64,000 nucleotides of DNA from Halorutilales archaeon Cl-col2-1 (GCA_041891055.1 CP169074.1:1312001-1376000), one strand, 5' to 3'. Shown: positions 1,375 to 23,054, counted from the stretch's first letter. Notes: generated from the sequence alone by a model not told the origin. Translations and numbers: made by a program.

Positions 1375-1454
1375 CTTGTCAGTACCCAAACAAAACAGGA
1401 TGCTTAGTTATTAAATTGAGGGTCGTTCATTCAATAGTTCTTTATTTGATCCAA

Positions 1455-2114
1455 TTATGTATGGACTTCATCAGGAGGAATTATATTTAGGTGATGTTCT
1501 GAAGAGTAATGTTTTTCGATAGCGTCGTTAATATCTGATTCTCTATCTATCATATCACGGTAATCAAGAGTGACAACCATATTTCCCCCACAGTGATCGC
1601 ACCAAACTGCTCCTTGTGCCAAGACGATGCTATCTTGATAATTATCGATCCGTGAATCTATATCCTCCGCTAATTCGTCCTTATGATCACCCGTATATAT
1701 TTTCGTTCTTTTCTTTACTGTTCGCTTCCTTGACCTGACTGAGCGGATGAATTTACGTAGCTCGTAAAATTTATTTTCATCATCAATCGATGCGAATTCC
1801 ATCTGCAGGTCTCGAAGGTGGTCTCGGTCATTATCCGTTACTTTTACAGATGGATTTCTGCTTTCGAAATCTATTACTTCGTACCTGAATATTGGATGGG
1901 TTTCTGAGTCACTCTCCTGTTCAACGAACTTCCGAAGATCAATATAGATTTGTCCCCTTGTAGAACATCTCATTTCAAATTCATCCTCAACTTCTGTGGA
2001 GATGAATTTGTCATCTCTTCCCTCAATAACGGAGATGCTACCTTCATCTCCTTCAAGCCAGACTTGTACGTAATTCAAAAGGACACTTGTATCGAGGAAC
2101 AGTTGTGAAGGCAC
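1455..2114 (-). CDS. PIN-domain protein (putative RNase toxin)
   Basis: N-terminal LFLDTSVLL, acidic EVEDE, DSIVLAQG and VTLD motifs typical of the PIN fold; GTG start 5 bp after the upstream stop. Confidence 0.7.
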   Translation of the reverse strand: MPSQLFLDTSVLLNYVQVWLEGDEGSISVIEGRDDKFISTEVEDEFEMRCSTRGQIYIDLRKFVEQESDSETHPIFRYEVIDFESRNPSVKVTDNDRDHLRDLQMEFASIDDENKFYELRKFIRSVRSRKRTVKKRTKIYTGDHKDELAEDIDSRIDNYQDSIVLAQGAVWCDHCGGNMVVTLDYRDMIDRESDINDAIEKHYSSEHHLNIIPPDEVHT

Positions 2115-2119
2115 TTATG

Positions 2120-3148
2120 TCACCCTGAATTGATTTTGTCATAAGTCTCTGTCAATTCACTAACCGTCTCTTTAACAGAGGTTTCCGAGGATTCTGGGTA
2201 ATAGTCATCAGGTTCAGGGATAAGCCCTGCATCAGCGCACAGCCCCTCTAAATTGTACAGAAAATCGTCATAATTCTTGTCAAGGAACTGTAGTTCATCG
2301 CTCGCTCCTTCCCGAATTTCATTCTTATTTATTCCATGTGGAGTTTCTCGGGAAATTGTTTCTGCGACATATTTCCACGCGTAATCGTGATAGAAATCGC
2401 TCAACTCCCGTATGATTGTCCGAGGATCACAGTCTAGTTCATCTTGGTTGCTTTGACCGAGCTTCATGTAGATGTCTTCAACAAGGTCAGTATATGTAAT
2501 AAATTGCTCTGCAACCTCATTGAAGACCTCTAGCTTCAACAGTTCTCCATGGAGATCGCTGATGATGCGTCCAAGTTCTCGACAGTAGTCTTCGTCGACA
2601 AAAACAACATTAAGGCTTTCCGCATCGTCCCACAGAAAGCGTTGGAATTTGACATTATGAAGGTACAGTTGCTTGAATTGGGAGGGGGCATTCTCCATAT
2701 AAAAATCACGGAGAAAATCATGCAAATCGGACTCAAGAATCTCTTCCAAGCCCTCAAATTCGCCCAGTTCAAGACCCAAATAGAACTCTTGATATTCTTG
2801 GGGAGAAGGATATCTATCTGTAACTCTAGGTCTCACACTTGGAGTGAATGGATGGGGGATTTCGTTCAAAGCTGTTGGTTGTATACCCTCCGGTGAGGGA
2901 ACACTATTCCCTAAATCAGGTCCGTAGGTATGCCAGCTATATTGTACTGGAATACGAGACCAGTCCACCCCAAGGAATATCGTCTTATGAAGTTTAATTT
3001 CCCCGTGGGTTGCTTGTTTAAATGGTCTTGATCCGGTATCCAACTCGGATAACGCTCCTTCCAGACCATGGATGAGATCATCCAGGAGCTGCTTTTCCTG
3101 CGCGCGAGATATGTTTTCCATGTTTTTTACCCCATGCCGTGAACTCAT
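2120..3148 (-). CDS. Panacea/SocA (DUF4065)-like N-terminal domain protein, putative antitoxin
   Basis: IKLHKTIF...YSWHTYGP resembles the KLxKLxY...W.YGP signature; directly upstream of the PIN gene. The start may be the ATG at 3121. Confidence 0.5.
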   Translation of the reverse strand: MSSRHGVKNMENISRAQEKQLLDDLIHGLEGALSELDTGSRPFKQATHGEIKLHKTIFLGVDWSRIPVQYSWHTYGPDLGNSVPSPEGIQPTALNEIPHPFTPSVRPRVTDRYPSPQEYQEFYLGLELGEFEGLEEILESDLHDFLRDFYMENAPSQFKQLYLHNVKFQRFLWDDAESLNVVFVDEDYCRELGRIISDLHGELLKLEVFNEVAEQFITYTDLVEDIYMKLGQSNQDELDCDPRTIIRELSDFYHDYAWKYVAETISRETPHGINKNEIREGASDELQFLDKNYDDFLYNLEGLCADAGLIPEPDDYYPESSETSVKETVSELTETYDKINSG

Positions 3149-3318: not shown

Positions 3319-6300
3319 ATGAAATACTTCGACAGAAACTCCGATGAATCCCGAATGGACTCTCAAGTCCGCCCTCTTCTCCAAGGACTTCTACAGAACA
3401 AACAGATATTCACCGAGGACGATACTGACGACGCGCCAGAGGTTACTGGAGCACTGAAGTACACTCAGGAGGAGCAAAAACGCCGAGACGTAGATGACTA
3501 CGACGGTGACAATCCGTTTGTCGAGTCTATAATAGATATATTCGGTTTCCAGCCTCTCGACTTCCAAGTAAACAGCTGGAGGGTAATGGAAGAACTCGAC
3601 GCAAGACGGCAACAGAGGGACAGGTCACAACGGGTTATATTCTCGGCTCCCACCGGCTTTGGGAAGACAGAGAGCTTCTTAGGACCGCTTTATCAGCTAC
3701 TCCGTCGCGGTGATCAGGAAATGTCTATTCTGGTGTACCCTAGCCGTGCGCTTCTTCAGGATCAGTTGGCGCGTATTCTAGAGCATATCCATACAATAAG
3801 AGAGGATAGTGGTGACCATCTCTCAGTAGGCATCTGGACGGGACAGACTCCGTATAAAATCTCTGACGTTGAAAATGATTTCTTTGAGCGAGAGGGATCC
3901 GAACAGGAGTTCAAGCTGGCTAACTGTTGGTGCGGCGAAGAAGACGAAACTAATTCATTCGTATATCGGGGCGGAAGCGACGGCTACAGTGTAGTCTGCG
4001 AAAACAATGAGGACCACTCGTTTAGTAACCGTGAGCTCGTCCTCAACCGTACAGATATGCGCAAGGGGGGACATCCCAACATTCTGCTAACTACCTTAGA
4101 GTCCTTGGAGCTATTCGGTCTCAAGCCGAACTACGATATCATAAGCCACGCTGACTCAATAGTCTTTGATGAAATCCACCTGTATACCGGATTAAGGGGC
4201 GCACACACCGCTAACATAGTCAACAACATCGAATCCGTTACCGATGACTCCATACTCTGGGTAGGCTCAAGTGCAACTATTGACAACGAAGAGAGATTCG
4301 CAAACAAGATATTCCCTTCGGGCGGAGAGCTAGAGTCAGTTTCGCCCCCTGACTCCGACTTTGCCACAGATCACGACGACAAGGAACACTACTACTTCAT
4401 GAAGTCGACTGAGTCCGGTCCAGGTGTATCCTCTATGTATATACAGCAGATAATGTTGCTCGGACACTCCCTACTTGAGAAACAGAACGGCGACCGTGGT
4501 AAGATACTTTCATTTATTGATAGTATAAGCCAGGTTAACCAGAAGAGAACCCAGCTTGAGGACGCTGACAGCAACCGGAGTCTATGGCAACACCACGTGG
4601 GGTCAGGTGACACCAGCGACTGGGAAGTGGTCGCTCAAGATATGGGGTATAACTTCCTCCGAAACGACCTTGATTTTGGATCCGTATACTCGGACGTTGG
4701 GTTCGACGCTTCGGTAAAGGACAACGACGTTCTACTATCTACGAACTTTCTTGAGGTCGGCATCGATGTAGGCGACATAACGATAGTAACCCAGTACCGT
4801 ACCCCGTGGAACCTTTCTTCGTTTGTTCAGCGAGCGGGTCGCGCTGCACGCGAAGAAGGAACTGACTCACACATCTTTGTCTTTCTCTCTGACCTAACAG
4901 AAGACTCCAATATGTTCTACCGAGCCGACCGTTTCCTGTCTTCCGAAATACGAACCCCGTTAAAAACCGATAACGAGGTTGTCAAATGGATACACGACCG
5001 GTTTGAGATCTATTACGAAATCGCCACCCAGATATCCGACCGTAGATACTACTCTACTAAGGAGGAAACGGAGGACTTCCACGAAAGGTTCCTTGTTGAC
5101 GAGCTGGGCTGGGAGGACTACCACACCTTAATTACAGATCCGGGGCAGGTTCTCGCAAGAGAGTTAGATATCTATGACTCGTTCGACAGCTTGGTAGGGC
5201 AGAGACCGGTTGAAGAAGTATTGGCTAGACTAGAAGAAGAACAAGATGAGATAGATAATCAGCTGTCCATTGAAGGAGTCGAAGGAGATACCGTTTCCTC
5301 TCTTTCAAATTCTATTCACGAAAATATCCTTAGATTCGTCCAAGAGCGCTCAGACGTTGTAGAGGAATGCGGAGAATCCGAGGTTCCGGAAAACCTACTT
5401 GATGACCTATCGTCTAAGCTTGATTCTATCCGGAAAACTCTCACAGATCAGCCTGGGAATACGACAGGCTCAGTCTCCGAAACTGGATATCAGGAAGTAC
5501 TCCCTGACTTATTTGACGTAACTAGTGACATACTCAGGTTACGGAATAACATACAAAACGACTCAGTTAACGTAGGTCAGTTTGAATTTAGTGCTCAGGA
5601 TATAAGCGACCAAGTATCTGAGCTAAAGAGGCTGACAGATGATGAGGAGGTGAAGAAGTTAGAAAAGAAACGGAAAAAGACCCAGTACCTCATGAAGGCT
5701 CTGGAGGAGATACACGACTACAACGAAATTCAGACAAATCATCTAAGCCTCCACTACGTGAAGCATCTCCTGCGAGGTGGCTATTACTTCAACAGGTTCC
5801 TACGGGTGGATGGAGGTTCGTTAGGCGACGGTGATATATGGTATATACCCGAGAACTACTTCAACGACGCTGGCAAGTACTTCACTGTAAAGTACGGTGA
5901 TAATGAGGGTAGCGATTCAGAGGAACCTATCGACAAGCTCGTACATTCGTACACTCCCTTCAGGAGCGAATATCAGCAAGACGCTGGTCATCTGCAGGCG
6001 TTTGTTCCCATGACCGTGGTGGAAGAAGACGGCACGGTACGGTTCGACTTCAGCGATATCGATGAAGGGGAGACACATGACGACCTTTTCGTCCCTGATT
6101 CTATCACCCTCTCCGACATAGATGACCTGAGCGGGAGTAAAGCCCTGAACATAGTTCGGTACTGTCCACAGTGTCTACAGATTCTTGACGAAGGTAGCTG
6201 TCTTCGTCACAACGATTCCAGGCTGGGTAAGATACACTCCAGTCCGAATGTAGAGACAACACTAACCGAACGTGTAGAGGAGTCAAAACAGGGCAATATG

Positions 6301-7356
6301 TCACTCGCAGATGTCTCCGGAAAGGTACGTCTCACAGGTACGTCGCTAGAGATTACACCCGCAACATACAGTTCCCAGAGTTCCCAGAATGGGAAGTATA
6401 TCTTCACAGGTGGCGATAGAATCAGTCGGGAGATTACGGCTCCTGAACAGACACTAGGTTTCACCATCGATACACGGGGACTGATATTTGACATTAGTGA
6501 TTATCTGGATGTCGTTGGTGATGATGTTACGACAGAACACGCGTCTCGGTACAACGACTTCGACGAGGTTTCGGCTCGGTACGTGGCAACCCACACAGCG
6601 GCACACTTCTATACGCAGTTCGTCGCAGATCTGGCGGGAATAAGCCCTAATATGTTGTTCTACGGTTTCGATATGGATAACGAGGAAGTATACGTGTTTG
6701 AACGCTCCCAGGGTGGACAGGGTATCGTTGACTTGGTCTTCAATGATGTCCGCCAAGATCCTGCAACTGCGCTTGAGTCAATTACCCGCATCAGCTACAA
6801 TCTCCAAGTTATCAACGAACGTCTCTGGGCAGACGAAGAGTTCGTTGAGAATTTAGAAGAATCCCGAAACAAGGATCAACTAGAGGAGTTGGTTAGAAGT
6901 TTTGATGAGGTTCCTGTATATAATCACATTGTCGACCTGATTGTGGAAGAGGTGCAGTCCTCAGTAGACAGAGCTACTCAGCTGGCACAAGAGGAGTCAA
7001 TATCAAGGGAAACAGCCTACGAGGTGAAACACACCGTATCAAAAGAGCGTGTAGCTGGTGTTGAGACCTTTCCCGAAGAGAAAGTGTCCAACGTAGTCCC
7101 AAATATCGGAGACCACGAAAGAATCAAAACCCTATTCTTCTCACCAGATATTGACGGCTGTGTAGAGAACCTTCATCTATCCGAATGTATATCCTCCTAC
7201 GATCAGTCTGATGCACTCAGCTACGTATTCCTTGAAGAACTCCGAGAGGAACTGATTGAATACATCCCAAGCAATAAAAGCGCAGACCACATCTTCAACA
7301 AAGAGATGTTCCCAGGAGGTGAGTACGATGGTACAAACATTTTCGTTACCCTCTAG
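3319..7356 (+). CDS. Large SF2 helicase with C-terminal DUF1998-like region (DpdJ-like)
   Basis: APTGFGKT, YPSRALLQDQ, DEIH, SSAT, LEVGIDVG, QRAGRAAR; Cys/His clusters (CWC..C..H, CPQC..C..H); C-terminal HTAAH...FERSQGGQG...DGC; followed by a PLD gene as in dpdJ-dpdK. Confidence 0.8.
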   Translation: MKYFDRNSDESRMDSQVRPLLQGLLQNKQIFTEDDTDDAPEVTGALKYTQEEQKRRDVDDYDGDNPFVESIIDIFGFQPLDFQVNSWRVMEELDARRQQRDRSQRVIFSAPTGFGKTESFLGPLYQLLRRGDQEMSILVYPSRALLQDQLARILEHIHTIREDSGDHLSVGIWTGQTPYKISDVENDFFEREGSEQEFKLANCWCGEEDETNSFVYRGGSDGYSVVCENNEDHSFSNRELVLNRTDMRKGGHPNILLTTLESLELFGLKPNYDIISHADSIVFDEIHLYTGLRGAHTANIVNNIESVTDDSILWVGSSATIDNEERFANKIFPSGGELESVSPPDSDFATDHDDKEHYYFMKSTESGPGVSSMYIQQIMLLGHSLLEKQNGDRGKILSFIDSISQVNQKRTQLEDADSNRSLWQHHVGSGDTSDWEVVAQDMGYNFLRNDLDFGSVYSDVGFDASVKDNDVLLSTNFLEVGIDVGDITIVTQYRTPWNLSSFVQRAGRAAREEGTDSHIFVFLSDLTEDSNMFYRADRFLSSEIRTPLKTDNEVVKWIHDRFEIYYEIATQISDRRYYSTKEETEDFHERFLVDELGWEDYHTLITDPGQVLARELDIYDSFDSLVGQRPVEEVLARLEEEQDEIDNQLSIEGVEGDTVSSLSNSIHENILRFVQERSDVVEECGESEVPENLLDDLSSKLDSIRKTLTDQPGNTTGSVSETGYQEVLPDLFDVTSDILRLRNNIQNDSVNVGQFEFSAQDISDQVSELKRLTDDEEVKKLEKKRKKTQYLMKALEEIHDYNEIQTNHLSLHYVKHLLRGGYYFNRFLRVDGGSLGDGDIWYIPENYFNDAGKYFTVKYGDNEGSDSEEPIDKLVHSYTPFRSEYQQDAGHLQAFVPMTVVEEDGTVRFDFSDIDEGETHDDLFVPDSITLSDIDDLSGSKALNIVRYCPQCLQILDEGSCLRHNDSRLGKIHSSPNVETTLTERVEESKQGNMSLADVSGKVRLTGTSLEITPATYSSQSSQNGKYIFTGGDRISREITAPEQTLGFTIDTRGLIFDISDYLDVVGDDVTTEHASRYNDFDEVSARYVATHTAAHFYTQFVADLAGISPNMLFYGFDMDNEEVYVFERSQGGQGIVDLVFNDVRQDPATALESITRISYNLQVINERLWADEEFVENLEESRNKDQLEELVRSFDEVPVYNHIVDLIVEEVQSSVDRATQLAQEESISRETAYEVKHTVSKERVAGVETFPEEKVSNVVPNIGDHERIKTLFFSPDIDGCVENLHLSECISSYDQSDALSYVFLEELREELIEYIPSNKSADHIFNKEMFPGGEYDGTNIFVTL

Positions 7357-7774
7357 CGGATTACGTTACTTGCTCGGTTACTCATTAGCACAAAAGGATC
7401 ATGTTGCTATATGCACGCCGTGGCTGAGCGACGTAGAGCTACGGCTACCGCTAAGTCCCGAAGTAGAAGATCGTCGTATTTCGCTGTCTGCTGCTCTCGA
7501 AAAGTTTGACACAAGAGTGGATGTGTATATCAGAGAAGGTCAGTCACACAATGAGTATATTCTTTCAAAAATAGGAGAGAATGCTAATATAACTAAAGAT
7601 GAGAATCTACACGCCAAGGCTATCGTAACCAACGAGTACGTGTATCTCGGCTCCGCAAATATAACAAGAGGTGGATTGTTGACGAATCTCGAGCTGTGTC
7701 AGGTGATAGAAAACGAGTATGAGAGCGTAGAGAAGTACCTGGAGGCTGAGTTAGAACTCTCAGTTTCTCCATAA
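7328..7774 (+). CDS. Single-HKD phospholipase D-family nuclease (DpdK/DrmC-like)
   Basis: CTPWLSD and LHAKAIVTNEYVYLGSANIT. The ATG at 7328 is preceded by GGAGGTGA and overlaps the helicase end, so it is preferred over the ORF-track start at 7256. Confidence 0.8.
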   Translation: MVQTFSLPSSGLRYLLGYSLAQKDHVAICTPWLSDVELRLPLSPEVEDRRISLSAALEKFDTRVDVYIREGQSHNEYILSKIGENANITKDENLHAKAIVTNEYVYLGSANITRGGLLTNLELCQVIENEYESVEKYLEAELELSVSP

Positions 7775-7783
7775 TCAGGACTA

Positions 7784-8338
7784 TCAGTTGGATTCCTGAT
7801 TTAATCTCGGGTTGTCAACTTCAAGAAAGTCCGAAAGATTCTCCAGCAGAATTTCTTGGTGTTCGTAGACAGTCTTTCGCGTTTTCTTACTGTGACCAGA
7901 CAGTTTGACCTTGTCCACCATTCTTATCAGATGTTCCAGCTTCTGCTTCGATCTGTTGTACGGCTCAGATCGGAACTCAAGCTCTTCTTCGGTAATTAAC
8001 TCGACGACACCATCCGGCTCGTTTAGATTGATGCTCGTTGACGGAAGAGATGAGGACTGCCCCTCTTCGAAGTTCAGGTATGGTTCGTACTCAGTGAGTA
8101 GTAGCTGCTCTGCCTTATCAGTGCCATCAGTTTCCCACCATTCGACTCTATGAATATCCCATATATCCAACCTACCATAGCTAACTACACTTGAGTCTTG
8201 ACGAATAAAATGCTCTCTCAGACGCCTTCTTAGGCTACTATCTGTCTTACCTGCATATGCCGGCTCATCGTCTAAGTCATACATGCAGTACACTCCACAT
8301 TCACCCCTTGGAACGGTCTTAAGCTCCTCGGAAATCAT
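7784..8338 (-). CDS. GIY-YIG nuclease family protein
   Basis: GVYCMY...AYAGKT...LRRRLREHF...E...LN matches the GIY-YIG hairpin plus conserved R, E and N. Confidence 0.85.
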   Translation of the reverse strand: MISEELKTVPRGECGVYCMYDLDDEPAYAGKTDSSLRRRLREHFIRQDSSVVSYGRLDIWDIHRVEWWETDGTDKAEQLLLTEYEPYLNFEEGQSSSLPSTSINLNEPDGVVELITEEELEFRSEPYNRSKQKLEHLIRMVDKVKLSGHSKKTRKTVYEHQEILLENLSDFLEVDNPRLNQESN

Positions 8339-9900
8339 CGCAACTCCTCTACTATGATAGCGTTCACTAACTCAGAAGCACCGTCGTACGAGTATGTTAT
8401 CTGCTTGTTTTCGAAGTCAATAGAGACATTACCCTGTAAGTATCCTTTGCGTTCTTGTTCCCGGAGATAGTCCAAGTCACCCCACTCCCAAGCTACGATA
8501 GCGTCAATAACTTCCAGATTCCTTTCCTTCTCGAAGTGATCTTGAACAGACATCTCTACTGAGGTAGCCTCAAGCCCCTGCCCATTGCGTATGAAGGCAG
8601 TTACATCGTGATCAGGTCGGTAGTCCTCAAGCTCCACTATAGGCTCTTCTTTATCACGATTGACTCTCTCAAGCGCGACGAGGAGTTCTGCTGTGTTTTC
8701 AGGCACAAATTCTGAATCCTGCCTCTTAATTAGTTTCTCACGTCTCTGCTCGACGGACTTCGACTGAGACTCAGATCTACGTTGCGCTTCTCCTCTTCGT
8801 AGCGTATCTTGGTACTTCGAGAACCACGGATCGCTACATACTTTGGAGATGTAGTGCCTGACCTCTTCCAAAAGACGGTCGTATAAATCACTACTCTTGT
8901 TGCGGATCTTACCCCTGTTGGCTGAGAGTTCAAGATCCTGACAGTTAGCCACAAAGAAGAGATGTGTGTGTTCTACGTTGTCCGGAACAACCTCATTAGC
9001 TTGTTCGACCTTGATATGATCCTTTGCTAACCAGACTCCGAACTGTGCAGAATGTTTCCCGTACGTGGCAAGTTTGTTACGTGCTCTTTTACCTCCTACC
9101 ATGCCGACAATCTCCACCTCAGAAGTACCACCATCATGCTCTACCTGCAAAGTCTTTGCAGGATAGTGCTTGCACATCCATTCTCCAGGGAACCTCCCCC
9201 CCGCAGGCTCTATCTGCTCTTCGGGAAACTCAAAGTGGTTGTTGATTCTCAGATCTTTCTGAGTATCGTCGATGTAGGCATCCAGATCAACAATTACCTC
9301 CATCTCACGGGAATCGTCTTCGAAGAAGTGAGCAGTAGATCCTGCAACTGTCTTCCACTTCAGATAGTGTTCTATCTTATTGTAGGTTAACGAACCTTCA
9401 CTAAGTCCTTTACCCGACCTGAAGCCGATAATCTCAATCTTCGTACCTTCCCGATTATCCCTCTGCTGCTCTGTGACCTCATACTCCGGTAATTCTCTCT
9501 CATTTAGCTTTTCCCAAGGTCGATTCATCTTCGCCGACAGATGTTTATCGTTCTTTGAGGTCTCAACTCGTATCTGATCACTCTTGTAGAAAATCTTAGT
9601 ACCATGTCCCTTGTACCCGATACCATCTTCTTTGTTGGAGTTTCCTAAATCAAAGAAAGACTCTAAATCGTCTTTATCCATCCCATTTCCGTCATCCTCT
9701 AAGACAATGTCCGCTCCTTCATCACGGGTACGTATTGTTATCTCGAAACGACCGGCGTCCGCATCGTATGCGTTAGATAAGGATTCTCGTATTACCTCGA
9801 GAGGATCCTCAAAATCACTAGCAATTTCCAGGAACTCGTTAACTTCGTTTACTTTCGGTGTTTTCCTCGTTTCTCCTTCCGTTTTTGTTTCTGTTTTCAT
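8335..9900 (-). CDS. GHKL (MORC/MutL/Hsp90-like) ATPase
   Basis: Bergerat boxes RESLSNAYDA, EDDGNGM, GIGYKGHG and GT; S5-like region (LSANRGKI); coiled segment; C-terminal DAIVAWE region. Confidence 0.85.
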   Translation of the reverse strand: MKTETKTEGETRKTPKVNEVNEFLEIASDFEDPLEVIRESLSNAYDADAGRFEITIRTRDEGADIVLEDDGNGMDKDDLESFFDLGNSNKEDGIGYKGHGTKIFYKSDQIRVETSKNDKHLSAKMNRPWEKLNERELPEYEVTEQQRDNREGTKIEIIGFRSGKGLSEGSLTYNKIEHYLKWKTVAGSTAHFFEDDSREMEVIVDLDAYIDDTQKDLRINNHFEFPEEQIEPAGGRFPGEWMCKHYPAKTLQVEHDGGTSEVEIVGMVGGKRARNKLATYGKHSAQFGVWLAKDHIKVEQANEVVPDNVEHTHLFFVANCQDLELSANRGKIRNKSSDLYDRLLEEVRHYISKVCSDPWFSKYQDTLRRGEAQRRSESQSKSVEQRREKLIKRQDSEFVPENTAELLVALERVNRDKEEPIVELEDYRPDHDVTAFIRNGQGLEATSVEMSVQDHFEKERNLEVIDAIVAWEWGDLDYLREQERKGYLQGNVSIDFENKQITYSYDGASELVNAIIVEELR

Positions 9901-9901
9901 C

Positions 9902-11143
9902 TTAGAAGTAACCTCCTAATGATTCATTTACGACTCTGTGAGCGTGTTTACGTGTCGACTCCTCACGTGCAATATTATTGTCTATATAATTCCTAAGTGC
10001 ATCCTGTCCCTCCTCAATCTTGTTCCGTATCCTTTCTAATTCTCGTTTCTGAACTATTAGGTTATGCACAGCTATTGGACCGGCTATATCCTTTTCGTAC
10101 TTCGTATTTCCTTTCATACGACTCACAAGCTCATCAGAGCTGCATACAGGACAGTCGCATTCCTCGTAATTAGCTTCGTCTTTATGTACTGTCTTCGTCA
10201 GGGATGTCGAATACTTTCCATTTATCCCCCCACGCATATACGAAGATGAGTCAAAAGTATCCACACCCAAAGCGGCAAGTAGAGGTATAGCCCCTTTGGA
10301 GATTCCAAAAACGTGTAATGGGAGATCTTCTAATCCTTCTTCTTGCATTACCTCCTTACACCCGATAACTGCCTCGATAAGGGTATCACGGTCATCTTTC
10401 TTTGGAACTAGCCCACCTAGTGCGATACCGTCAAACGAATTATATATTCTCTGTATACCCATCTCGTCTTTAAGATGAGTTAAGAAAGTTTTGATCATCG
10501 AATAGTTATAGCCATGTAATGTGAGATACTTGGCCCCAGCATAGCCTGAGGACAGTTCTGCAAATTGACGAGCGTCTTTACCAGTCTTCCTCGCTTTTCT
10601 TATTCTATCGTCATGGTTATCCTCAGGTGAGATAGGACGATCAAGATTTACGAGAATATCTCCTCCCAACTTTCTCTGCATTTCGTATATCCTCTCCTGA
10701 TTCATCTCTATCTCAAAGTCACTCCCATCAAGCTTCCCTTTCCTTAGTATTTGAAAACCTCCAGAATCAATAAATATCATACCATTAAATCCCTCAAATA
10801 CGTCTCGCGCTTTGATTGGTTCAGAAAGATAGTCTCGGAGATAGTTTCTACTAATTCCATATTGAGTTAGTGATGATATCGACATCATAGCAGTATCAAA
10901 ATATTCACTGCAGTCAACGCTGTCAACCCTATCAGCACCCACCATCAATTCTTTGACTGTCCTGTGAACGCTCCCCCCAAACATACTGGAAGCACGCCCT
11001 CCACCATAGAAATTCACTACAGGAAAAAGATTTGGCGTCTCAATTTCGGCTGTTCCAGCAGACAAAGTTCCTGTCCTAGCATCACCAGTAGTAGAAGATA
11101 CTTCAAATGAGACTTCCTGCGAACCCATACCTATACTACTCAT
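9902..11143 (-). CDS. TGT-family transglycosylase B (DpdA-like, no PUA domain)
   Basis: ARTG, ETPNLFPV, FIDSGGFQ, LDRPI, ALGGLVP, LHVFG, GVDTFDSSSY and zinc site CDCPVC...HN; catalytic Asp residues present. Confidence 0.9.
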   Translation of the reverse strand: MSSIGMGSQEVSFEVSSTTGDARTGTLSAGTAEIETPNLFPVVNFYGGGRASSMFGGSVHRTVKELMVGADRVDSVDCSEYFDTAMMSISSLTQYGISRNYLRDYLSEPIKARDVFEGFNGMIFIDSGGFQILRKGKLDGSDFEIEMNQERIYEMQRKLGGDILVNLDRPISPEDNHDDRIRKARKTGKDARQFAELSSGYAGAKYLTLHGYNYSMIKTFLTHLKDEMGIQRIYNSFDGIALGGLVPKKDDRDTLIEAVIGCKEVMQEEGLEDLPLHVFGISKGAIPLLAALGVDTFDSSSYMRGGINGKYSTSLTKTVHKDEANYEECDCPVCSSDELVSRMKGNTKYEKDIAGPIAVHNLIVQKRELERIRNKIEEGQDALRNYIDNNIAREESTRKHAHRVVNESLGGYF

Positions 11144-11589
11144 GCTTTAATCACTCTCTTATCTCGAACGAATTTTTTTAATACATGCCCACGTTCACCG
11201 AGACCTCCCTCTAGCATTATCACTTCAGCATCTGTCTTGGATTCTATTCCATCTATTGCTCTACGGTATAGCTCCCCCATATTAATGACAACTTTACTGT
11301 AGTCGTTCTTCTCAATTGTCCTAGATAATTCGTGCACAACGTCGGTATTAAGCTCGTCGGCACGTGAGGCAGTCATCTTTTTATCATACGTTACTATTTT
11401 CTCCTCTGGATCCAGCAATCCATATTCCGCAGAAAGTATACATATATCAATATCATCGTCGTATTCCCCCTCCCGTCTTGCTTTTTTAATTATCTTGTAA
11501 TAGTATCCAGAATATAGATCAAAGGCAGGAACCGGTTCAGAAACTGACTTCTTCGAGCTAGAGCAACTTTGAACGAGTAGTGTCGACAT
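11140..11589 (-). CDS. DUF6884/YaaA-like small protein
   Basis: LLVQSCSSSKK...PAFDLYSG...ILSAEYGLL...YD pattern; ATGA-coupled to TGT B. Confidence 0.7.
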   Translation of the reverse strand: MSTLLVQSCSSSKKSVSEPVPAFDLYSGYYYKIIKKARREGEYDDDIDICILSAEYGLLDPEEKIVTYDKKMTASRADELNTDVVHELSRTIEKNDYSKVVINMGELYRRAIDGIESKTDAEVIMLEGGLGERGHVLKKFVRDKRVIKA

Positions 11590-11626
11590 CTGTAGAATAC
11601 GTTTTAATCACCGAGACCTATATAAC

Positions 11627-13624
11627 TTACTCAACTGACGGACTGATTCCCCTCAAGTGACTGACTAACTCCTCTATATTGGACTTTCGAAAATGTTCTC
11701 TAAGTTTCAGGATGTTCGGATCATCTGGCAACACAGTTCCATCACCATATCTAGAAAAGGCTTCATCTACTGCTTCTCTGTAGTTTTTACTAACCACATA
11801 TCCTAAGATTTCATCGTATTCATCTCCATACTGCTCAAGATACTCAGTTAATCTCTTCGTGATCAAATCCTTCTGACCTTCATCCTCAGAAGTTAATACA
11901 TATTCGTACTCTAAAACCGCCTGTTCTTCTTCGTATTCTTCAGGAACTGGCCCAAACATACCCGAAAGGGTTACTTTATGTATATCATTACGCATAGAGG
12001 AAACTTCATCAAGCACTGCTCTCTGTGTACGTGATGACCCATAGGGCTTCTCTTTACTGCACGGTAAGATCAATAAGATAGGTTTGTCTGGTGGGGAGTA
12101 ATTTCTCTGTAATATATTGAAACTATTCGCTCCATGCTCAAGAGATATTGTTCGATTAGTTGTGCCCCCCTTCACTCCGGCATCAAATCTATCTAATTTA
12201 GACTGGTGTTTCGTCATCTTAGACCCAGGCAAAAGATCATAATCACCTCTGTCCTCAATATCTTTCCTTAGCTTTTCATCCCTGACTTGCGCTTGTTTTA
12301 GTCCTTTTTGGATCCCATTGTCTTCGCGTGCGAATTCAATAACATAATCAAGAAGATTTCCATTCTTAATAGCCTCTTGAACCCGCCTTACTTCTCTGTT
12401 ATATACCTCGAAGTTATGACGAGCAAGCCATCCGTAGTATTTGCTCTTCGTGAACCCATCAGTTCCATATGTCGGCTCACGTTCTATATACTCATTTAAT
12501 TTTTTAAGAGAGAGTCTATTTCCTTCCTCATCAAGAGCCTCAGATTCCTCACTACATAGTGGACATCCATCTATATTACACGGGAATGTGTCTTTTTCCT
12601 CTGCTAGTTCACTTAATTCTACTCTCTCCCACGTTTCAGGTATAATATACTTCCTGAATTTAGCAGCTTGAACATGGCTTGAGCAATCAAATGAATCAAC
12701 CCCTAGAAGAGAAAGAATACCCGCTTGTTTACCTCCTACTCCAAAAGAATGTAAAGCTATTTTATCCTTCTTTTCCTCTGGAATAGCATCTTTAGCTCCT
12801 TGGATTATATCAACCAGAGTCTTTGTTTTGCTTCGAAGGGGTACTAAAGATCCAATGGCAAATCCATGAAAAGGTTGCTGTACGTTTTCCTCCTCAATAC
12901 GTTCAAGGAAATTCATCACATACCAGTTCATTGTCTCATAGTCATGTCCATGAATAGCAACAAAAACAGCTGGGTCAGCTACTTTCTTCTGCTTCTTTAA
13001 ACGGCGTATACTTTCTTTATCTTGTTCAGAACGTATTTCTATCTTATCAGGGCCCTCAATAAGTTTTAAACAGCGTACAGCACTTTCGATACTTTGATTC
13101 ATTCGGTCAATCTTTTCCCCTTCTTTTAGATTCTGTGGGATTGGATAATCAAGGGTAGCTATAATATCAGCCCCAAAGTCCGTCTGTAATTTCAAAATGC
13201 TGTCAGGATCTGTATATATACCCCATTCATTTTCTTCACCTCCTTCGTCAGGAGCTAGTCCAAATGTCTTAGAATTCATTAATTTAAATCCGCCAGAATC
13301 AATAAAAAGAGGTGCATTCATGTCAACACGACTTTCTAAATGTTCTCGAAGAGTTTTTTTACGCCATTTCTCGTTAAGATTCTTGGGAGAGACCCCATAC
13401 TCAGTAAAGCTCATAGCTTGAAACATAATGCCCTGAAGATCGTCTTCATCAAGTATATTATCCCGGAAGTGCCTCCATATTGATCCAGAGTCTAAAGTAG
13501 TGCCGCCAATTAGATTTATAACAGGGAAAAGAGCAGGTGTATTAACCTCCCCATTACGGACAGAAAGGGTGCCAAGCCTACCATAGCCATCATCACTGAC
13601 TTCATCAATAGAAAACTCCGTCAT
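11627..13624 (-). CDS. TGT-family transglycosylase A fused to a C-terminal DUF5591 (ArcS-type) domain
   Basis: GRLG, TPALFPV, FIDSGGF, LDYPI, AIGSLVP, LHSFG, GVDSFDCSSH and zinc site C..GCPLC...HN; C-terminal LILPCSKEKPYGSSRTQ...GPVPEEYE. Confidence 0.88.
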   Translation of the reverse strand: MTEFSIDEVSDDGYGRLGTLSVRNGEVNTPALFPVINLIGGTTLDSGSIWRHFRDNILDEDDLQGIMFQAMSFTEYGVSPKNLNEKWRKKTLREHLESRVDMNAPLFIDSGGFKLMNSKTFGLAPDEGGEENEWGIYTDPDSILKLQTDFGADIIATLDYPIPQNLKEGEKIDRMNQSIESAVRCLKLIEGPDKIEIRSEQDKESIRRLKKQKKVADPAVFVAIHGHDYETMNWYVMNFLERIEEENVQQPFHGFAIGSLVPLRSKTKTLVDIIQGAKDAIPEEKKDKIALHSFGVGGKQAGILSLLGVDSFDCSSHVQAAKFRKYIIPETWERVELSELAEEKDTFPCNIDGCPLCSEESEALDEEGNRLSLKKLNEYIEREPTYGTDGFTKSKYYGWLARHNFEVYNREVRRVQEAIKNGNLLDYVIEFAREDNGIQKGLKQAQVRDEKLRKDIEDRGDYDLLPGSKMTKHQSKLDRFDAGVKGGTTNRTISLEHGANSFNILQRNYSPPDKPILLILPCSKEKPYGSSRTQRAVLDEVSSMRNDIHKVTLSGMFGPVPEEYEEEQAVLEYEYVLTSEDEGQKDLITKRLTEYLEQYGDEYDEILGYVVSKNYREAVDEAFSRYGDGTVLPDDPNILKLREHFRKSNIEELVSHLRGISPSVE

Positions 13625-13733
13625 ATCTATACAGTAGATACTAAGAGAATTAGAGCTTTCGGAAAGGTGTATCCGAAACTTCAGGTATATTGGGAGACTT
13701 GAAAAGTATAGGAGTAGTTCAATAAGCTACGCC

Positions 13734-14411
13734 ATGACAGAAAATAACCAAGCTATAGCGATACCTCAAATATCACTAATTGCTCTGTTTGTCACTGCGT
13801 TAATTACTGCTCAAGTAACTGCCTCGAAGGTTATAGAGATCGGACTACCATTCGGATTACCAGTAACGGGGGAGTCAATAATAGTCCCAGCAGCAGTTTT
13901 TGCATACGCTCTTACTTTCTTCTCCTCTGACTGCTATGCTGAACTCTACGGTAAGCAAGCAGCACAAGCTCTTGTTAACGTCGCATTCATCATGAATTTC
14001 GTTCTATTAGCTCTAGTTTGGCTCGCTATATACGCACCTATCTTTCCAGATTCTCCTGTCGGACAAAATGAATTTGTCCAGACTCTTGGTGCTAGTACTG
14101 GAATAGTCATGGGGAGTTTATTAGCGTATATCGTAAGTCAAAACTGGGATGTTATAGTGTTCCACCGTCTCAAGAACTTTTCTGACGGAGATGATCTATG
14201 GCTTCGTAACATTATCTCTACTTCCACGAGTCAGCTAATAGATACAGTTATATTCATCTCAATTGCATTTATTGTCTTCCAAGGATTGTCTCTTGAAGCA
14301 GGAATAGCTCTCCTCATCGGACAATATGTATTCAAACTGCTTATAGCAGTACTCGACACACCATTTGTGTACATAGTAGTGGGTATAATAAGATCCAATC
14401 AAGATGGATAG
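13734..14411 (+). CDS. yhhQ: Queuosine-precursor (preQ0/preQ1) transporter, YhhQ/Vut_1 family
   Basis: Multi-TM protein with SDCYAELYG, SLLAYIVSQNWDV, WLRNIISTSTSQLIDTVIF and DTPF motifs. Confidence 0.9.
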   Translation: MTENNQAIAIPQISLIALFVTALITAQVTASKVIEIGLPFGLPVTGESIIVPAAVFAYALTFFSSDCYAELYGKQAAQALVNVAFIMNFVLLALVWLAIYAPIFPDSPVGQNEFVQTLGASTGIVMGSLLAYIVSQNWDVIVFHRLKNFSDGDDLWLRNIISTSTSQLIDTVIFISIAFIVFQGLSLEAGIALLIGQYVFKLLIAVLDTPFVYIVVGIIRSNQDG

Positions 14412-14452: not shown

Positions 14453-14590
14453 GAGTACGCGCGTAAAGTCGACATCGACAAAGATGTCAAGCTGTTTCGT
14501 CTCCAGGGACTCAAGTATCAGCTCGCTATCTTCGTGACTGACAAAGCTGAAGAACTTGAAAAAACAGAATAGAAGAGCTTACGAGTTTTC
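14453..14590 (+). pseudogene. Degenerate copy of the 3' end of the 16784-17409 gene
   Basis: Translates EYARKVDIDKDVKLFRLQGLKYQLA versus EYVRKADVDEDVKESRLQGLKDQLA; identical 18-mer TCGTCTCCAGGGACTCAA at 14497 and 17274. Confidence 0.85.
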
Positions 14591-15284: not shown

Positions 15285-15401
15285 ATGAAAGCTACGAATA
15301 CGACCCAGAAAGATGTATCGCTGTTAGAGCAGCTGCTAGATGGAGCAGATGTTGGAGTAAGAGAGTCAAATGAAAAACAAAAGAGTACTCCTCTCAGCTA
15401 A
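15285..15401 (+). CDS. Small ORF or truncated gene (38 aa)
   Basis: MKATNTTQKDVSLLEQLLDG...; follows the structured leader and ends 2 bp before the next ATG. Confidence 0.35.
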   Translation: MKATNTTQKDVSLLEQLLDGADVGVRESNEKQKSTPLS

Positions 15402-15403
15402 AA

Positions 15404-15652
15404 ATGACTTCCGGGAAACAAACAGACAAGCAAGACCTGATCGACGAGCTGAAGAGGCTAGCAGATATGACAGACGACGAACCCAAAGTCAAGCATGTCC
15501 GCAAGTATGGCGAATATTCCTATACAGCGTACAGGCGTTACTTTGATTCTTGGGAAGAGGCTCTCGATGCTGCTGGTATCACTGAAAAATCAAGCGAAAT
15601 TAAGATCGAAATCAAAATCGAGTTAGACAAAACCTTTTCTTTCTCTATCTGA
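15404..15652 (+). CDS. Homing-endonuclease-associated repeat protein (no nuclease domain)
   Basis: LIDELKRLA...P....GEYS...YRRYFDSWEEALDAAG is the HNH-associated repeat pattern. Confidence 0.75.
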   Translation: MTSGKQTDKQDLIDELKRLADMTDDEPKVKHVRKYGEYSYTAYRRYFDSWEEALDAAGITEKSSEIKIEIKIELDKTFSFSI

Positions 15653-15840
15653 GAATCTTTTGACCTGGGTCAGTTGACCCATCCTATCCTCTCATACTTC
15701 TTTACGACACAAAACTAGCCTCCTACACATATTCAAAAGAAAGTATTTAGAGACCTCTAAATAACGAAAACATATATGCTGAATATTACTTTACCTTCTC
15801 CAAAGTCTTTAAATCCATACACATCAAAGATCTATGTAGT

Positions 15841-16296
15841 ATGACTTACGAGAACCTTGATCTCAAAATCATAAACCTGCTCGAGGACGATGCACGTAGA
15901 AGTCTTAGGAGCCTAGCCGAAGAGCTCGATGTCTCGGTCACAACTGTAAGCAACCATCTTGAGAACATGCAAGAGGAGGGTATAGTAAAAGGCTTCAAAC
16001 CAGTCGTCAACTACGACGAACTCGGTTACGGCGTCACAGCCACAGTGATGATAAAAGCCGAGGGTAACAGCATCCTCGATCTCACAGAAGACCTCAAAGA
16101 CATAGACTCGTTCTTGAGTGTCTATGAGGTCACAGGAGAGTTCGACATAATCGCTATAGGCAAGTTCGAGAGCACGGAGGCAATGAACAACGTAATCAAG
16201 AACCTCTTAGAGAATCCCAACATAGCTGAGACCAACACCAACGTCGTCTTAGAAACTCACAAAGAAAACGAAGACATCGAGTTCGAAGTAGAATAG
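15841..16296 (+). CDS. lrp: Lrp/AsnC family regulator (haloarchaeal Lrp-like)
   Basis: MTYENLD...SLRSLAEELDVSVTTVSNHL HTH and a RAM domain with YEVTGEFDI. Confidence 0.85.
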   Translation: MTYENLDLKIINLLEDDARRSLRSLAEELDVSVTTVSNHLENMQEEGIVKGFKPVVNYDELGYGVTATVMIKAEGNSILDLTEDLKDIDSFLSVYEVTGEFDIIAIGKFESTEAMNNVIKNLLENPNIAETNTNVVLETHKENEDIEFEVE

Positions 16297-16783: not shown

Positions 16784-17409
16784 ATGACCTTCAGCGACGT
16801 CTGGTACACTCTCTTAGAGGAACTCGAAGACTTCTCCGAAGATACTACCATAACCACACCGATAACCAACAAGAAACTCTCGAACGTTACGACGTCGATG
16901 AAATAGAGAGCGTAGATACTGACGAACTCGTGAACTTCTACACTCTCCTCTCAGACGTACAGCGTGGTGCTGATAATCTACGCAAGGAGGTGAGCCAAGA
17001 GCTCTTAGACCGGGTAGAGGACGACTCGCCTGTGCACGGACAGTTCGGTTCAGTCTCGAAGACAACACGGAGAGTACGGGATCTACGTGATGAAGACGAG
17101 GTAGCACAGGTGTTAGAAGAGTCTGGTGTACCCAGAGAGAAAATTACGGGAGTCGTTGAGGACAAAGTTAGAGAGGCTCTCGAAGTCGCTGACATCCCAG
17201 AAGACGAGGTCTACGAGATAGAAGAAAGAGAGTATGTGCGTAAAGCCGACGTCGACGAGGACGTCAAGGAGTCTCGTCTCCAGGGACTCAAAGATCAACT
17301 CGCCGCCTTCGAGACTGACGAGGCTGAAGAGCTGCGTGACGAGGTCGAAGAGCTAGAGAATAGGATAGAAGAGCTCACTAGCTTTAGAGCAGGATCTAGT
17401 TTTGAGTAG
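16784..17409 (+). pseudogene. Haloarchaeal hypothetical gene with frameshift or internal deletion
   Basis: The frame from ATG 16784 (MTFSDVWYTLLEELE...TTP) stops early; a second frame resumes LERYDVDE...VNFYTLLSDVQR...HGQFGSV...RLQGLKDQL to the stop at 17409. Confidence 0.65.
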
Positions 17410-17935: not shown

Positions 17936-19207
17936 TTATTCGAATTTTTTGAGTTCAGTCTGTCTTCCATCATCGGAGGTATCGCCATCATATTCTATGC
18001 CATCCTCAGGGAATGCAGATGTAAATTTATCCCTAGCGTACTGTCGGATAAAGTCTTTTTTCTTATCATCGTCAAGATAGCTATTTTCTATGACATCTAT
18101 CGAGGAGCTTGCTTGATCCTCTGCTACTATTTCGAGGGTTCTATGCAGTTCTGCGTTTGCGCTGTGGTAGAATGTATACCAAAATCTACGCAGATTTTTA
18201 GGTGTAGGGGTAGATTCATCGCTTAAGGACACATTTGCTCTATTAGCTATGTCCTTAACCCAGTGTCTTAGTGTCTGATCGGTTCTGGACCCGGACTGAG
18301 TATCAGATGGGAATACTTTGCCGTTCCAGTTATCTTCGTTTCTCAGCTGATTTATATAATACTCAATAGCTTTTTTACCCCCCATGATAGCTACTTCTCC
18401 GGGGCCGTTCTTCCTTTCGCGGTATTCAATGCTTGGGTTATTGTCAATATCTATGTCTTGAGGGACATCTATCCTAATGATATCAGATGGGCGTGCTCCT
18501 GCTCCACCCATCAGGGCTAACAGAGCCTGTTCACGTAAGCTATCTGCCTCATACCACATGCGGCGTATTTGATCAGCAGATAGTGCCTCCGTCTTCGAGT
18601 CTGTCTCTCTCTCCCACCCAAACTCATCTAGTAGTCCATCTGCAGGATTATAATCAATTTCGCCGCGTCTGGCGCAATATTCGTAAAATTCTCTTAAATC
18701 AGTAGCGTAATTTATTTTGGATTGACCACTCTGGTAATAGTCGTCGATGACCTCAAAGACTCTCTCCAAGATGGCAAACCCAGATCTCTCTGAGCCACGT
18801 GCTAGACACATCAAGTCTCCGTCTCCAGTTATCTTATGTACGTAATCTAGGATAGTCGACAGACGTGATCTCCTTGACTCACGTGTAGTCTCGGCAAGTT
18901 TTTGGTGGTTTACTACATCATCTATATAGTTGTCGAGTTTACGCTGGGTCTCACTATGGTTGCCTGGCCAGTCATAGTCTAGGTTATCATCATCCCGGAA
19001 TCCATAGTGTTCGACCAACATCTCATGGGTGCTCATACCATACTCCCTTCTGGCCGCTCTGTGGATAGCACTGTATCCATTTTCGTTTATCCACTTATGT
19101 GATGGGAGCTCCAACTCTGGTTTGCCATCTTTTTTCAATTTTTCTTTTATTTCGGAGTTTACTATATCATCTATAAACTCTTTGGTATATTTTTTCCCGG
19201 ACATCAT
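17936..19207 (-). CDS. Divergent tyrosine recombinase-like protein
   Basis: SAM-like core, NPA, GARPSD (R), RKNG (K), TPKNLRR in place of HxxR, C-terminal SY; ATGA-coupled to the upstream integrase. Confidence 0.75.
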   Translation of the reverse strand: MMSGKKYTKEFIDDIVNSEIKEKLKKDGKPELELPSHKWINENGYSAIHRAARREYGMSTHEMLVEHYGFRDDDNLDYDWPGNHSETQRKLDNYIDDVVNHQKLAETTRESRRSRLSTILDYVHKITGDGDLMCLARGSERSGFAILERVFEVIDDYYQSGQSKINYATDLREFYEYCARRGEIDYNPADGLLDEFGWERETDSKTEALSADQIRRMWYEADSLREQALLALMGGAGARPSDIIRIDVPQDIDIDNNPSIEYRERKNGPGEVAIMGGKKAIEYYINQLRNEDNWNGKVFPSDTQSGSRTDQTLRHWVKDIANRANVSLSDESTPTPKNLRRFWYTFYHSANAELHRTLEIVAEDQASSSIDVIENSYLDDDKKKDFIRQYARDKFTSAFPEDGIEYDGDTSDDGRQTELKKFE

Positions 19208-20322: not shown

Positions 20323-20377
20323 CAAGACATATATGATACCAATAAATCAGACTCATCCTCAAATCGAGATTTGATGG

Positions 20378-22896: not shown

Positions 22897-23054
22897 CGTA
22901 TCCTCGTGATGTTTAAGCGAATCGTAATGGTCACGCAATATAATAATCGCCCGACATCGTCGGGGTGACTGTTCAACTGAGTTTCATTGCCCTAACCCAA
23001 CATAATTATCCGATCTTTGTCGGGGTTGAAAACACCAGAAGGAGACGGGTTGAA

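Follow-up and report, generated by a model that had tools for sequence, protein, structure and literature searches.

7-Deazaguanine marks occur in the DNA of bacteria, where they belong to the Dpd systems, and in that of viruses, and we know of no archaeal cell that has been shown to carry them. In Salmonella the transglycosylase DpdA requires the ATPase DpdB to put preQ0 in DNA, and DpdC independently makes dADG (PMC10164549). Dpd-like systems 'detected exclusively in halophilic archaea' have been named BRIGADE by Bell et al. (bioRxiv 2025.09.15.676423; PMC12458937). BRIGADE type I is described as one ARMADA-like and one Dpd-branch YprA helicase together with a predicted 7-deazaguanine cluster and a phospholipase D (PLD) nuclease, and the BRIGADE nuclease as a PLD (or PD-(D/E)xK) enzyme without the 4-helix-bundle domain; its authors state that BRIGADE is still to be characterised (PMC12458937). 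In the literature that we searched, BRIGADE turned up in two preprints, of which one describes it and the other mentions it; experiments on such systems were reported in neither, and 7-deazaguanines in the cellular DNA of haloarchaea were not reported anywhere.

Here we analyze a locus in a 64,000-nucleotide stretch of DNA from Halorutilales archaeon Cl-col2-1 (CP169074.1:1312001-1376000; hereafter the window, with positions counted from its first letter) in which genes for two TGT-family proteins, TGT-A and TGT-B, share a minus-strand operon with genes for a DUF6884 protein, a GHKL ATPase and a GIY-YIG protein. We consider it probable, at roughly 70%, that this locus belongs to a Dpd-like restriction-modification island of BRIGADE type I. 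Gene content, conserved synteny, intact active-site motifs and family assignments are what the analysis shows, and the mechanism is inferred.

Gene content and conservation of the locus

The locus is assigned as a putative BRIGADE type I member by the main-text description of that class in the preprint, because each feature given there is present, namely a halophilic-archaeal host, an ARMADA-like YprA helicase, a Dpd-branch helicase, a 7-deazaguanine cluster and a PLD nuclease. The best, though weak, hidden Markov model matches of the locus are to DpdA, DpdC, DpdJ and DpdK. A sequence-only reading of this stretch had proposed an archaeal, Dpd-like 7-deazaguanine DNA modification-restriction system, and these matches, together with the fit to BRIGADE type I, support it on that point. 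The same reading had regarded the system as a new kind, whereas Bell et al. had already named the class in 2025 (PMC12458937), and as a self-contained five-gene operon, whereas these genes are adjoined by a helicase resembling DpdJ, a PLD nuclease resembling DpdK and another YprA helicase, all of which co-occur with them elsewhere. Overall that interpretation is partly supported: it is in part right as to kind, but the borders that it drew and the novelty that it claimed were wrong.

The operon runs from TGT-A (a TGT::DUF5591 protein; 11627-13624, minus strand, 665 amino acids) through the DUF6884 protein (11140-11589, minus strand, 149 amino acids), TGT-B (9902-11143, minus strand, 413 amino acids) and the GHKL ATPase (8335-9900, minus strand, 521 amino acids) to the GIY-YIG protein (7784-8338, minus strand, 184 amino acids). 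Its junctions were read directly: the DUF6884 and TGT-B genes share an ATGA overlap at 11143-11140, as do the GHKL and GIY-YIG genes at 8338-8335, and TGT-B is separated from GHKL by one nucleotide at 9901 (TAA-g-ATG). A YhhQ/Vut_1 gene (13734-14411, plus strand, 225 amino acids) is divergent from TGT-A, with 109 nucleotides between it and the TGT-A start. The coordinates thus confirm the five open reading frames (ORFs), the ATGA overlaps, the one-nucleotide gap, the divergent yhhQ gene and the low-GC, tRNA-adjacent island that had been proposed.

Directly beside this operon, and converging on it, are the DpdJ-like and DpdK-like genes. The first codes for a 1345-amino-acid DEAD/DEAH helicase of the YprA type and Dpd branch (3319-7356, plus strand) whose best matches are to DpdJ (NCBIfam 4.5e-41, 140.6 bits against a cut-off of 800; PADLOC 6.3e-45). 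It gave no MZB match in Pfam, which fits the Dpd branch since Dpd helicases have lost DUF1998 (PMC12458937). The second codes for a DpdK-like PLD-family nuclease (7256-7774, plus strand; the ORF opens at TTG 7256 and the probable start is ATG 7328) with matches to Pfam PLDc_2 (33.2 bits, cut-off 27; all Pfam matches quoted for window ORFs are above the gathering score), NCBIfam DpdK (6.9e-12) and PADLOC DpdK (5.2e-11), and an HxK..GSxN motif is visible in its translation. Among the relatives the DpdK-like gene always lies 3' of the DpdJ-like gene. At the left end of the window are the N-terminal 463 codons of a Druantia/ARMADA-like DEAH helicase of the YprA family, roughly 1570 amino acids in full (1-1389, minus strand), an open-ended ORF with a likely start near 1302. 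This fragment is 61.6% identical over 437 amino acids to a full-length Natrinema plasmid protein (1571 amino acids) that has an MrfA Zn-binding domain (Pfam MZB/DUF1998) and DruE3 (8e-45) and DruE1 (3e-42) as its top PADLOC matches; its ARMADA-like placement follows best matches and not a tree. Because the DpdJ/K-like genes adjoin the operon and the YprA helicase runs off the left end, the system is larger than 7784-14411 and is cut by the window.

We searched for relatives among plasmids with tblastn against PLSDB and among genomes in one scan that used an alignment of three TGT-B sequences. On plasmids of Haladaptatus sp. YSMS36 and Natrinema sp. SYSU A 869 both TGTs have close homologues (54-57% identity), and these plasmids also carry homologues of the GHKL, DUF6884, DpdJ-like and DpdK-like genes and of the big helicase with the four genes that follow it. 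The genome scan yielded 18 loci, all in Halobacteria, with the best match in Halorussus amylolyticus (71%). Cultured strains among the carriers include Halorussus amylolyticus YC93, Halorubrum lipolyticum DSM 21995, H. coriense DSM 10284, H. kocurii JCM 14978 and Haloplanus ruber R35. Counts given below are over 21 loci (18 genome loci, two plasmids and the window) and are anchored on TGT-B. The order DUF6884, TGT-B, GHKL is contiguous in all 21, by overlaps or one-nucleotide gaps. A long TGT::DUF5591 protein is coded within 10 kb in 16 of the 18 genome loci, seven of them of the TGT-A type and nine of a sister type, A2; it was not in view within ±10 kb at loci L006 and L007. Both plasmids code for such a protein as well, 10 and 33 kb from TGT-B, and the Haladaptatus plasmid has both types. 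The two-TGT set is therefore conserved elsewhere, as the sequence-only reading required. DpdJ/DpdK-like pairs are present in four of the 18 genome loci, in both plasmids and in the window, and DpdJ-like homologues (44-60% identity) adjoin the TGT module in L001, L002/L003, L006, L007, L010 and L013. The big-helicase module is found in 11 of the 18, again with both plasmids and the window. Since these genes recur together in 20 other loci, their association is more than chance.

Two further observations concern these relatives. A family of large proteins combining a bacterial-PH domain or an SF2 helicase with homing-endonuclease-associated repeats and a helix-hairpin-helix adjoins the DUF6884 gene in 13 of the 18 related loci (for example L005 5471-8629, L017 6781-9354 and L014 1535-6196); this HNH-repeat helicase family is absent from the window save for one repeat unit (15383-15709). 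On the Natrinema plasmid (L003 18549-19027) DUF6884 is split by a frameshift that puts residues 1-35 and 35-146 in separate frames, and about 17 kb of integrase and other genes lie between the TGT-B part and the PLD gene; this copy may be decaying.

The two transglycosylases and their partner genes

TGT-B has a Pfam TGT match of 102 bits and scores 126.8 with the NCBIfam arcTGT model (TIGR00432, cut-off 350), 88.3 with tgt_general (cut-off 47.6) and 28.8 with DpdA (NF041059, cut-off 200), and PADLOC gives a DpdA match in the locus at 3e-7. TGT-A has Pfam matches to TGT (100.6 bits) and DUF5591 (56.3 bits) and scores 103.7 with TIGR00432 (cut-off 350) and 99.4 with ArcS (NF040592, cut-off 440); it gave no match to the NF041059 DpdA model in the NCBIfam scan. 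No PUA domain was detected in either protein with Pfam at E<=0.01. Judged by the curated cut-offs, neither TGT is a housekeeping enzyme; the condition set in the sequence-only reading, that the TGTs should not nest with housekeeping ArcTGT, was addressed through these cut-offs and through domain content.

Alignment to the Pyrococcus horikoshii ArcTGT structure 1iq8 (3.3e-14 for TGT-A and 3.2e-25 for TGT-B) stops near residue 327-351 of 582. Within it both proteins have the nucleophile Asp of DSGGF, the Asp of LD.P, the Asp residues of GVD.FD and the zinc ligands, the zinc site being CxCxxC..H in TGT-B and C-x4-C-x2-C..H in TGT-A. Their pocket reads GSLVP/GGLVP, as compared with GGVVP in ArcTGT and GGLAVG in Zymomonas mobilis TGT, a region that decides between preQ0 and preQ1 preference (PMC5699537). 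What had been claimed earlier for the catalytic Asp residues, the zinc site, the LVP pocket and the missing PUA domain was thus confirmed by these alignments and by Pfam. All 21 copies of TGT-B have D126, D168, D295, D298, C329, C331, C334 and H360 unchanged, and the catalytic Asp residues and zinc ligands are likewise invariant in all 20 TGT-A/A2 copies. TGT-A and TGT-B are about 25.5% identical and are therefore old paralogues, which agrees with the earlier proposal of two TGT paralogues, both of them intact and anciently diverged. A quick tree of the A, A2 and B copies gave Shimodaira-Hasegawa-like approximate likelihood ratio (SH-aLRT) values of 98 for A plus A2, 93 for A, 90 for A2 and 90 for B. 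Branching orders in the TGT-A and TGT-B groups are broadly parallel, and this congruence fits co-inheritance of the two genes.

For TGT-A the better description is a full TGT joined to the catalytic (C1) domain of ArcS. A complete TGT catalytic domain occupies approximately residues 1-434 and DUF5591 (ArcS C1) approximately residues 505-628; there is no C2 or PUA domain, and the chain ends 37 residues past DUF5591. In Foldseek the structure model of TGT-A (pLDDT 73.7) matched full TGT folds, among them 1iq8 (2.8e-17) and, with TMt as high as 0.78, Z. mobilis TGT. The ArcS motif PC-x3-KPY-x2-S-x2-H (PMC5699537; PMC10516641) appears in the window TGT-A as PCSKEKPYGSSRTQ. Its PC-x3-KPY-x2-S part is kept in 20 of 20 TGT-A/A2 proteins and its last His in 18 of the 20. 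TGT-B, for its part, is a short ArcTGT-like transglycosylase without tRNA-binding domains and is predicted from these features to insert preQ0 into DNA. When phage records were searched with tblastn, five matched TGT-A, three matched TGT-B and none matched the DUF5591 domain, with all matches at most about 25% identical; these being weak and bacterial Tgt-like, we recognize no viral relative. We also note that TGT-B ends in twelve residues (402-413; window 9902-9940), H-x-V-V-N-x-S-L-G-G-Y-F, that vary little or not at all across the 19 copies aligned and that look like a docking tail for some partner.

The DUF6884 protein matches Pfam DUF6884 (58.5 bits), PADLOC PDC-M57A (1e-11) and PADLOC DpdC (2.8e-8), the last over residues 12-83 alone and with 149 amino acids set against 319 DpdC model positions. 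CxxxK is present in 20 of 21 copies, the exception being the frameshifted one, and LSAxxG in all 21; both motifs are described by the Pfam curators for DUF6884, a YaaA-like DNA-binding family (PMC11701544). The protein appears to be related to DpdC, YaaA and ArcS C1 and is predicted to convert the nitrile of DNA-borne preQ0.

The GHKL protein (Pfam HATPase_c_3, 54.7 bits) consists of a GHKL domain of the MutL/Hsp90/MORC type, a transducer-like middle domain, a coiled coil and a C-terminal domain that matches no family. All 21 copies keep residues E39, N43, D69, G71 and G73 (D69xGxG) and the GYKGHGTK lid without change. In Foldseek its model (pLDDT 71) matched Hsp90, the MutL fragment LN40, GyrB, SMCHD1 and MORC2 at E of about 3e-9, with no nuclease fold seen, and its look-alikes in the ESM Atlas are generic HATPase_c_3 clusters that give no functional lead. 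Complex prediction for TGT-B with GHKL scored 0.55 as compared with 0.00 for the best of three controls, with runs agreeing in 100% of contacts and a partner pLDDT of at least 82. Among 80 solved complexes, 58 attain the mark used for this score, and among 110 mismatched pairs, two do so; scores at or below 0.60 comprised 7 of the 80 solved complexes as against both of the passing mismatches.

The remaining genes vary among the loci. The GIY-YIG protein (Pfam 24.1 bits, cut-off 22.6) keeps the GVY, Y..G, R39/R41/H43 and N89 positions in six of six copies, and its gene is present in only six of the 21 loci at variable positions. Directly beside GHKL it is seen in just two, the window and L011, where it is on the opposite strand; it is probably an accessory component. 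YhhQ has strong matches to Pfam Vut_1/YhhQ (161.4 bits) and to the queuosine precursor transporter model TIGR00697 (142.6 bits, cut-off 50.95), and is found in two of the 21 loci (the window and L018). QueD, QueE and QueC occur in two of the 18 genome loci (L005 and L018; QueC 188 bits, cut-off 150), instead of or alongside YhhQ. YhhQ is a likely accessory gene for preQ0 supply.

Proposed mechanism and competing explanations

In the mechanism that we propose, preQ0 would come from the host archaeosine pathway or from import by YhhQ, and TGT-B would swap it for guanine in the cell's own DNA. GHKL, which is translationally coupled to TGT-B, would supply the ATP-dependent step, a role played in bacteria by the unrelated ParB-like DpdB. 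The DpdC-like DUF6884 protein would then convert the nitrile once it is in place, with the amide dADG as one possible product, and TGT-A would insert preQ0, convert it, or both, giving a second, archaeosine-type derivative. Incoming DNA that lacks these marks would be attacked by the DpdJ-like helicase with the DpdK-like PLD nuclease and by the ARMADA-like YprA module, with GIY-YIG as an optional extra nuclease in the restriction part. GHKL is proposed as the stand-in for DpdB because, besides DUF6884, it is the sole gene that is always welded to TGT-B, and because an unrelated ATPase sits similarly in the type-II-like plasmids described below. That TGT-A may both insert and convert, and so give a second mark, is suggested because all TGT catalytic residues are kept; a precedent for an ArcS domain that acts on DNA is ArcS2 of phage nt-1, described below. 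The sequence-only reading had offered two roles for the paired TGTs, either one TGT per strand or two different marks; with TGT-A being a full TGT plus ArcS C1, the former loses ground and the latter is favoured.

A more specific version is put forward tentatively, at less than even odds. In it the cell writes two 7-deazaguanine marks through two modules that each join a TGT to a C-x3-K 'cantaloupe' domain, one of them split (DUF6884 and TGT-B, driven by GHKL in replacement of the ParB-like DpdB) and one fused (TGT-A, making deoxyarchaeosine or an undescribed chromosomal adduct), and the doubled mark is read by two YprA machines. The modification half of the system comprises in any case an invariant DUF6884, TGT-B, GHKL triad, a second catalytic TGT fused to an ArcS core, and variable supply genes. 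If GHKL does the job of DpdB, this would be a swap of non-homologous ATPases beside a DNA transglycosylase, and it would bear in general on the ATP requirement of base exchange in duplex DNA. Should TGT-A produce dG+ or some new adduct in the DNA of the chromosome, this would be a new natural context for a DNA base. What deserves testing is the doubled architecture of a TGT plus a C-x3-K domain, together with the conserved GHKL partner.

Several points weigh against assignment to a BRIGADE type I restriction-modification island, or against parts of the mechanism. The DNA marks are deduced from genes. Both TGTs stay below every equivalog cut-off in NCBIfam and pass only that of the model for the TGT superfamily in general; nor did either TGT match a solved DpdA structure at E<=0.01. 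The last His of the ArcS motif is Q in the window and in L004 (two of 20 copies). The TGT tree is made up of A, A2 and B copies and contains no ArcTGT, ArcS or bacterial DpdA references. Sequence homology between DUF6884 and DUF5591 is weak (hhalign probability against the TGT-A C-terminal domain 2.8%, E 0.016; Pfam 0.0018), and the alignment puts the motifs in register, which is no proof of homology. The predicted complex of TGT-B and GHKL, made from custom alignments, lends weak support to their partnership. GHKL ATPases are also found as parts of restriction enzymes, and the window GIY-YIG gene overlaps the GHKL stop codon, so that an effector made of GHKL and GIY-YIG is possible for the window copy. 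Finally, the left part of the system lies beyond the window, and with genome loci viewed to ±10 kb the co-occurrence counts are lower bounds and absences are uninformative.

On the view taken in the sequence-only reading, the five minus-strand genes are a complete system: the two TGTs mark DNA (one per strand, or with two marks), and the restriction nuclease is made up of GHKL and GIY-YIG. The tight packing of these genes, with ATGA overlaps and a one-nucleotide gap, agrees with this view, as do the overlap of the GIY-YIG start with the GHKL stop in the window, the restriction-enzyme family BbrUII/HgiDII as top NCBIfam match of GHKL (6e-11) and, as a lead only, one Atlas cluster of GHKL look-alikes with PDDEXK_1 on 20% of its members. 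However, GHKL follows TGT-B in 21 of 21 loci regardless of GIY-YIG, 15 of them having GHKL with no GIY-YIG in view, while GIY-YIG itself has no fixed place, and the DpdJ-like and PLD genes that abut the operon travel with it elsewhere. We therefore regard the proposed GHKL plus GIY-YIG effector as doubtful and a complete five-gene system as unlikely. Also quite unlikely is a division into separate defence systems, in which the TGT module would do no more than share islands with the helicase/nuclease modules, the TGTs acting as a stand-alone DNA modification (for protection from other restriction, or epigenetic) that has no cognate restriction. Module order and distance do vary, with TGT-A being 33 kb from TGT-B in the Natrinema plasmid, 7 of the 18 genome loci lack the big-helicase module and 14 lack DpdJ/K within 10 kb, and other defence genes (GmrSD, PbeA, GajB-like and HerA-like) are nearby. 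Yet a span of ±10 kb does not suffice for scoring absence, the two helicase types both lie close to the TGT genes in each of the three loci that were viewed in full (the window and both plasmids), and it is through this very association that Bell et al. define BRIGADE in the preprint's main text.

Two other explanations give the TGTs a different substrate. dPreQ1 is present in the DNA of haloviruses, HVTV-1 among them (PMC6884629, PMC10516641), and glycosylases that excise 7-deazaguanines defend bacteria (bioRxiv 10.1101/2025.10.29.685425), so one or both TGTs might act on invading DNA by recognising or exchanging the 7-deazaguanines of modified haloviruses, as a modification-dependent defence in the manner of the Dag glycosylases; this would account for two intact TGTs, which are otherwise hard to explain. 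The presence of supply genes (YhhQ, QueD/E/C) in three of the 21 loci and of nitrile-converting domains in all of them points to writing and not to erasing, and we consider this role very improbable. Least credible of all is that the genes constitute an alternative, horizontally moving archaeosine pathway for tRNA made up of ArcTGT and ArcS analogues. The top TGT-family matches are indeed to the ArcTGT and ArcS models and the closest solved structure is ArcTGT 1iq8, but the scores are far under the equivalog cut-offs (126.8 and 103.7 as against 350, and 99.4 as against 440), the C2/C3-PUA tRNA-binding domains are absent, and the genes are located on low-GC islands and plasmids amid helicases and nucleases and are sporadic among Halobacteria. 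Membership in a BRIGADE type I island thus remains our preferred reading of the locus.

Setting of the locus and comparison with known systems

The GC content is 0.36-0.49 across 1001-23000 as compared with 0.51-0.60 in most of the remaining window, and it steps up from 0.36-0.48 to 0.53-0.59 at a border formed by a tyrosine integrase (21790-22938) and tRNA-Glu(CTC) (23055-23129), both on the minus strand. In Halorubrum tibetense (L013) the system is likewise flanked by tRNA-Glu(CTC) and a 65%-identical integrase, and therefore the vehicle is conserved too. The system is probably carried on an integrative element at tRNA-Glu, and the integrase and tRNA-Glu border agrees with the mobile island that had been proposed from sequence. 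A second copy of the tRNA 3' half, as an att site, was not found within the window, and the left border of the island lies beyond it.

Other features of this region are as follows. Close to the tRNA, three genes for tyrosine recombinases follow one another (17936-19207, 19204-20325 and 21790-22938); the second and third are 46% identical, and L013 has homologues of both beside its tRNA-Glu(CTC). A 104-nucleotide direct repeat, 81% identical, at 14453-14556 and 17230-17333 encloses an HNH-repeat fragment (15404-15652), a haloarchaeal Lrp regulator (15841-16296; Lrp_Halo equivalog 204 bits, cut-off 190) and small ORFs, and may be what is left of an insertion that took place between yhhQ and the integrase genes. 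Two ORFs between the helicase genes, coding for proteins of 219 amino acids (1455-2114, minus strand) and 342 amino acids (2120-3148, minus strand), match no Pfam, NCBIfam or PADLOC family. Their homologues (27% and 24% identity) were found on the Natrinema plasmid alone, where they come directly after the PLD gene. The two are possible members of the system, and the start of the 219-amino-acid protein gives the impression of a PIN domain. In the host part of the window a TnpB gene (an IS200/IS605-type RNA-guided nuclease; 31759-33030, 303.7 bits, cut-off 100) matches a GC dip at 32-33 kb.

Among described systems, bacterial Dpd of Salmonella Montevideo shares the logic proposed for the locus, with insertion by a TGT plus an ATPase, conversion of the DpdC type, and restriction by a DpdJ helicase and a DpdK PLD protein. 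Unlike bacterial Dpd, the locus has TGTs that are arcTGT-like (DpdA score 28.8 as against 200) and two in number, an ArcS-C1 fusion and a second YprA helicase. Bacterial Dpd also has DpdB and DpdD-I, neither of which is present in the scanned ORFs; DpdB in particular gave no match in 28 window ORFs, 14 plasmid or locus proteins and 79 further ORFs, which upholds its reported absence, and the GHKL ATPase sits in place of the ParB-like protein. The locus would thus work like Dpd but is not a Dpd member.

The likeness to ArcTGT and ArcS extends to the fold, the catalytic Asp, the zinc site, the preQ0-type pocket and the PC-x3-KPY-x2-S motif, with the differences being the lack of C2/PUA tRNA-binding domains, scores below the equivalog level and a mobile defence-island setting. 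Canonical ArcS has a shortened TGT-like domain, and TGT-A has a full-length one with both catalytic Asp residues. The phage pair DpdA2 and ArcS2 offers another parallel, in that DUF5591 without PUA is paired with a transglycosylase. In Vibrio phage nt-1 ArcS2 is DUF5591 alone and gave dG+ with DpdA2 in E. coli (PMC10516641), whereas here DUF5591 is fused to a complete TGT in a cellular, restriction-linked system.

A second haloarchaeal plasmid system came to light in Haloferax alexandrinus pBNX82-4 and Salinigranum marinum (L022, NZ_CP106970.1, 11018-17076; L023, NZ_CP100464.1, 6391-17084). It has a DpdA equivalog (279.7 and 281.4 bits, cut-off 200) fused to a DUF6884-like domain and a short arcTGT-like TGT followed by a gene without known family and a BrxD-like ATPase, as well as preQ0 synthesis genes (QueC/FolE/QueE/QueD), large helicases and Csa3; its short TGT is about 27% identical to TGT-B and is found on at least nine plasmids. 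Like the window locus it combines two TGT-family genes, a DUF6884-like domain, an ATPase after the short TGT and DEAD/DEAH helicases, and it differs in having a BrxD-like ATPase where GHKL is found here. This second system is probably BRIGADE type II. With BRIGADE type I, finally, the window locus is in conflict on no point of the preprint's main text, a text that makes no mention of two TGTs, an ArcS-C1 fusion, DUF6884 or GHKL, and to that class the window copy adds YhhQ and a GIY-YIG gene.

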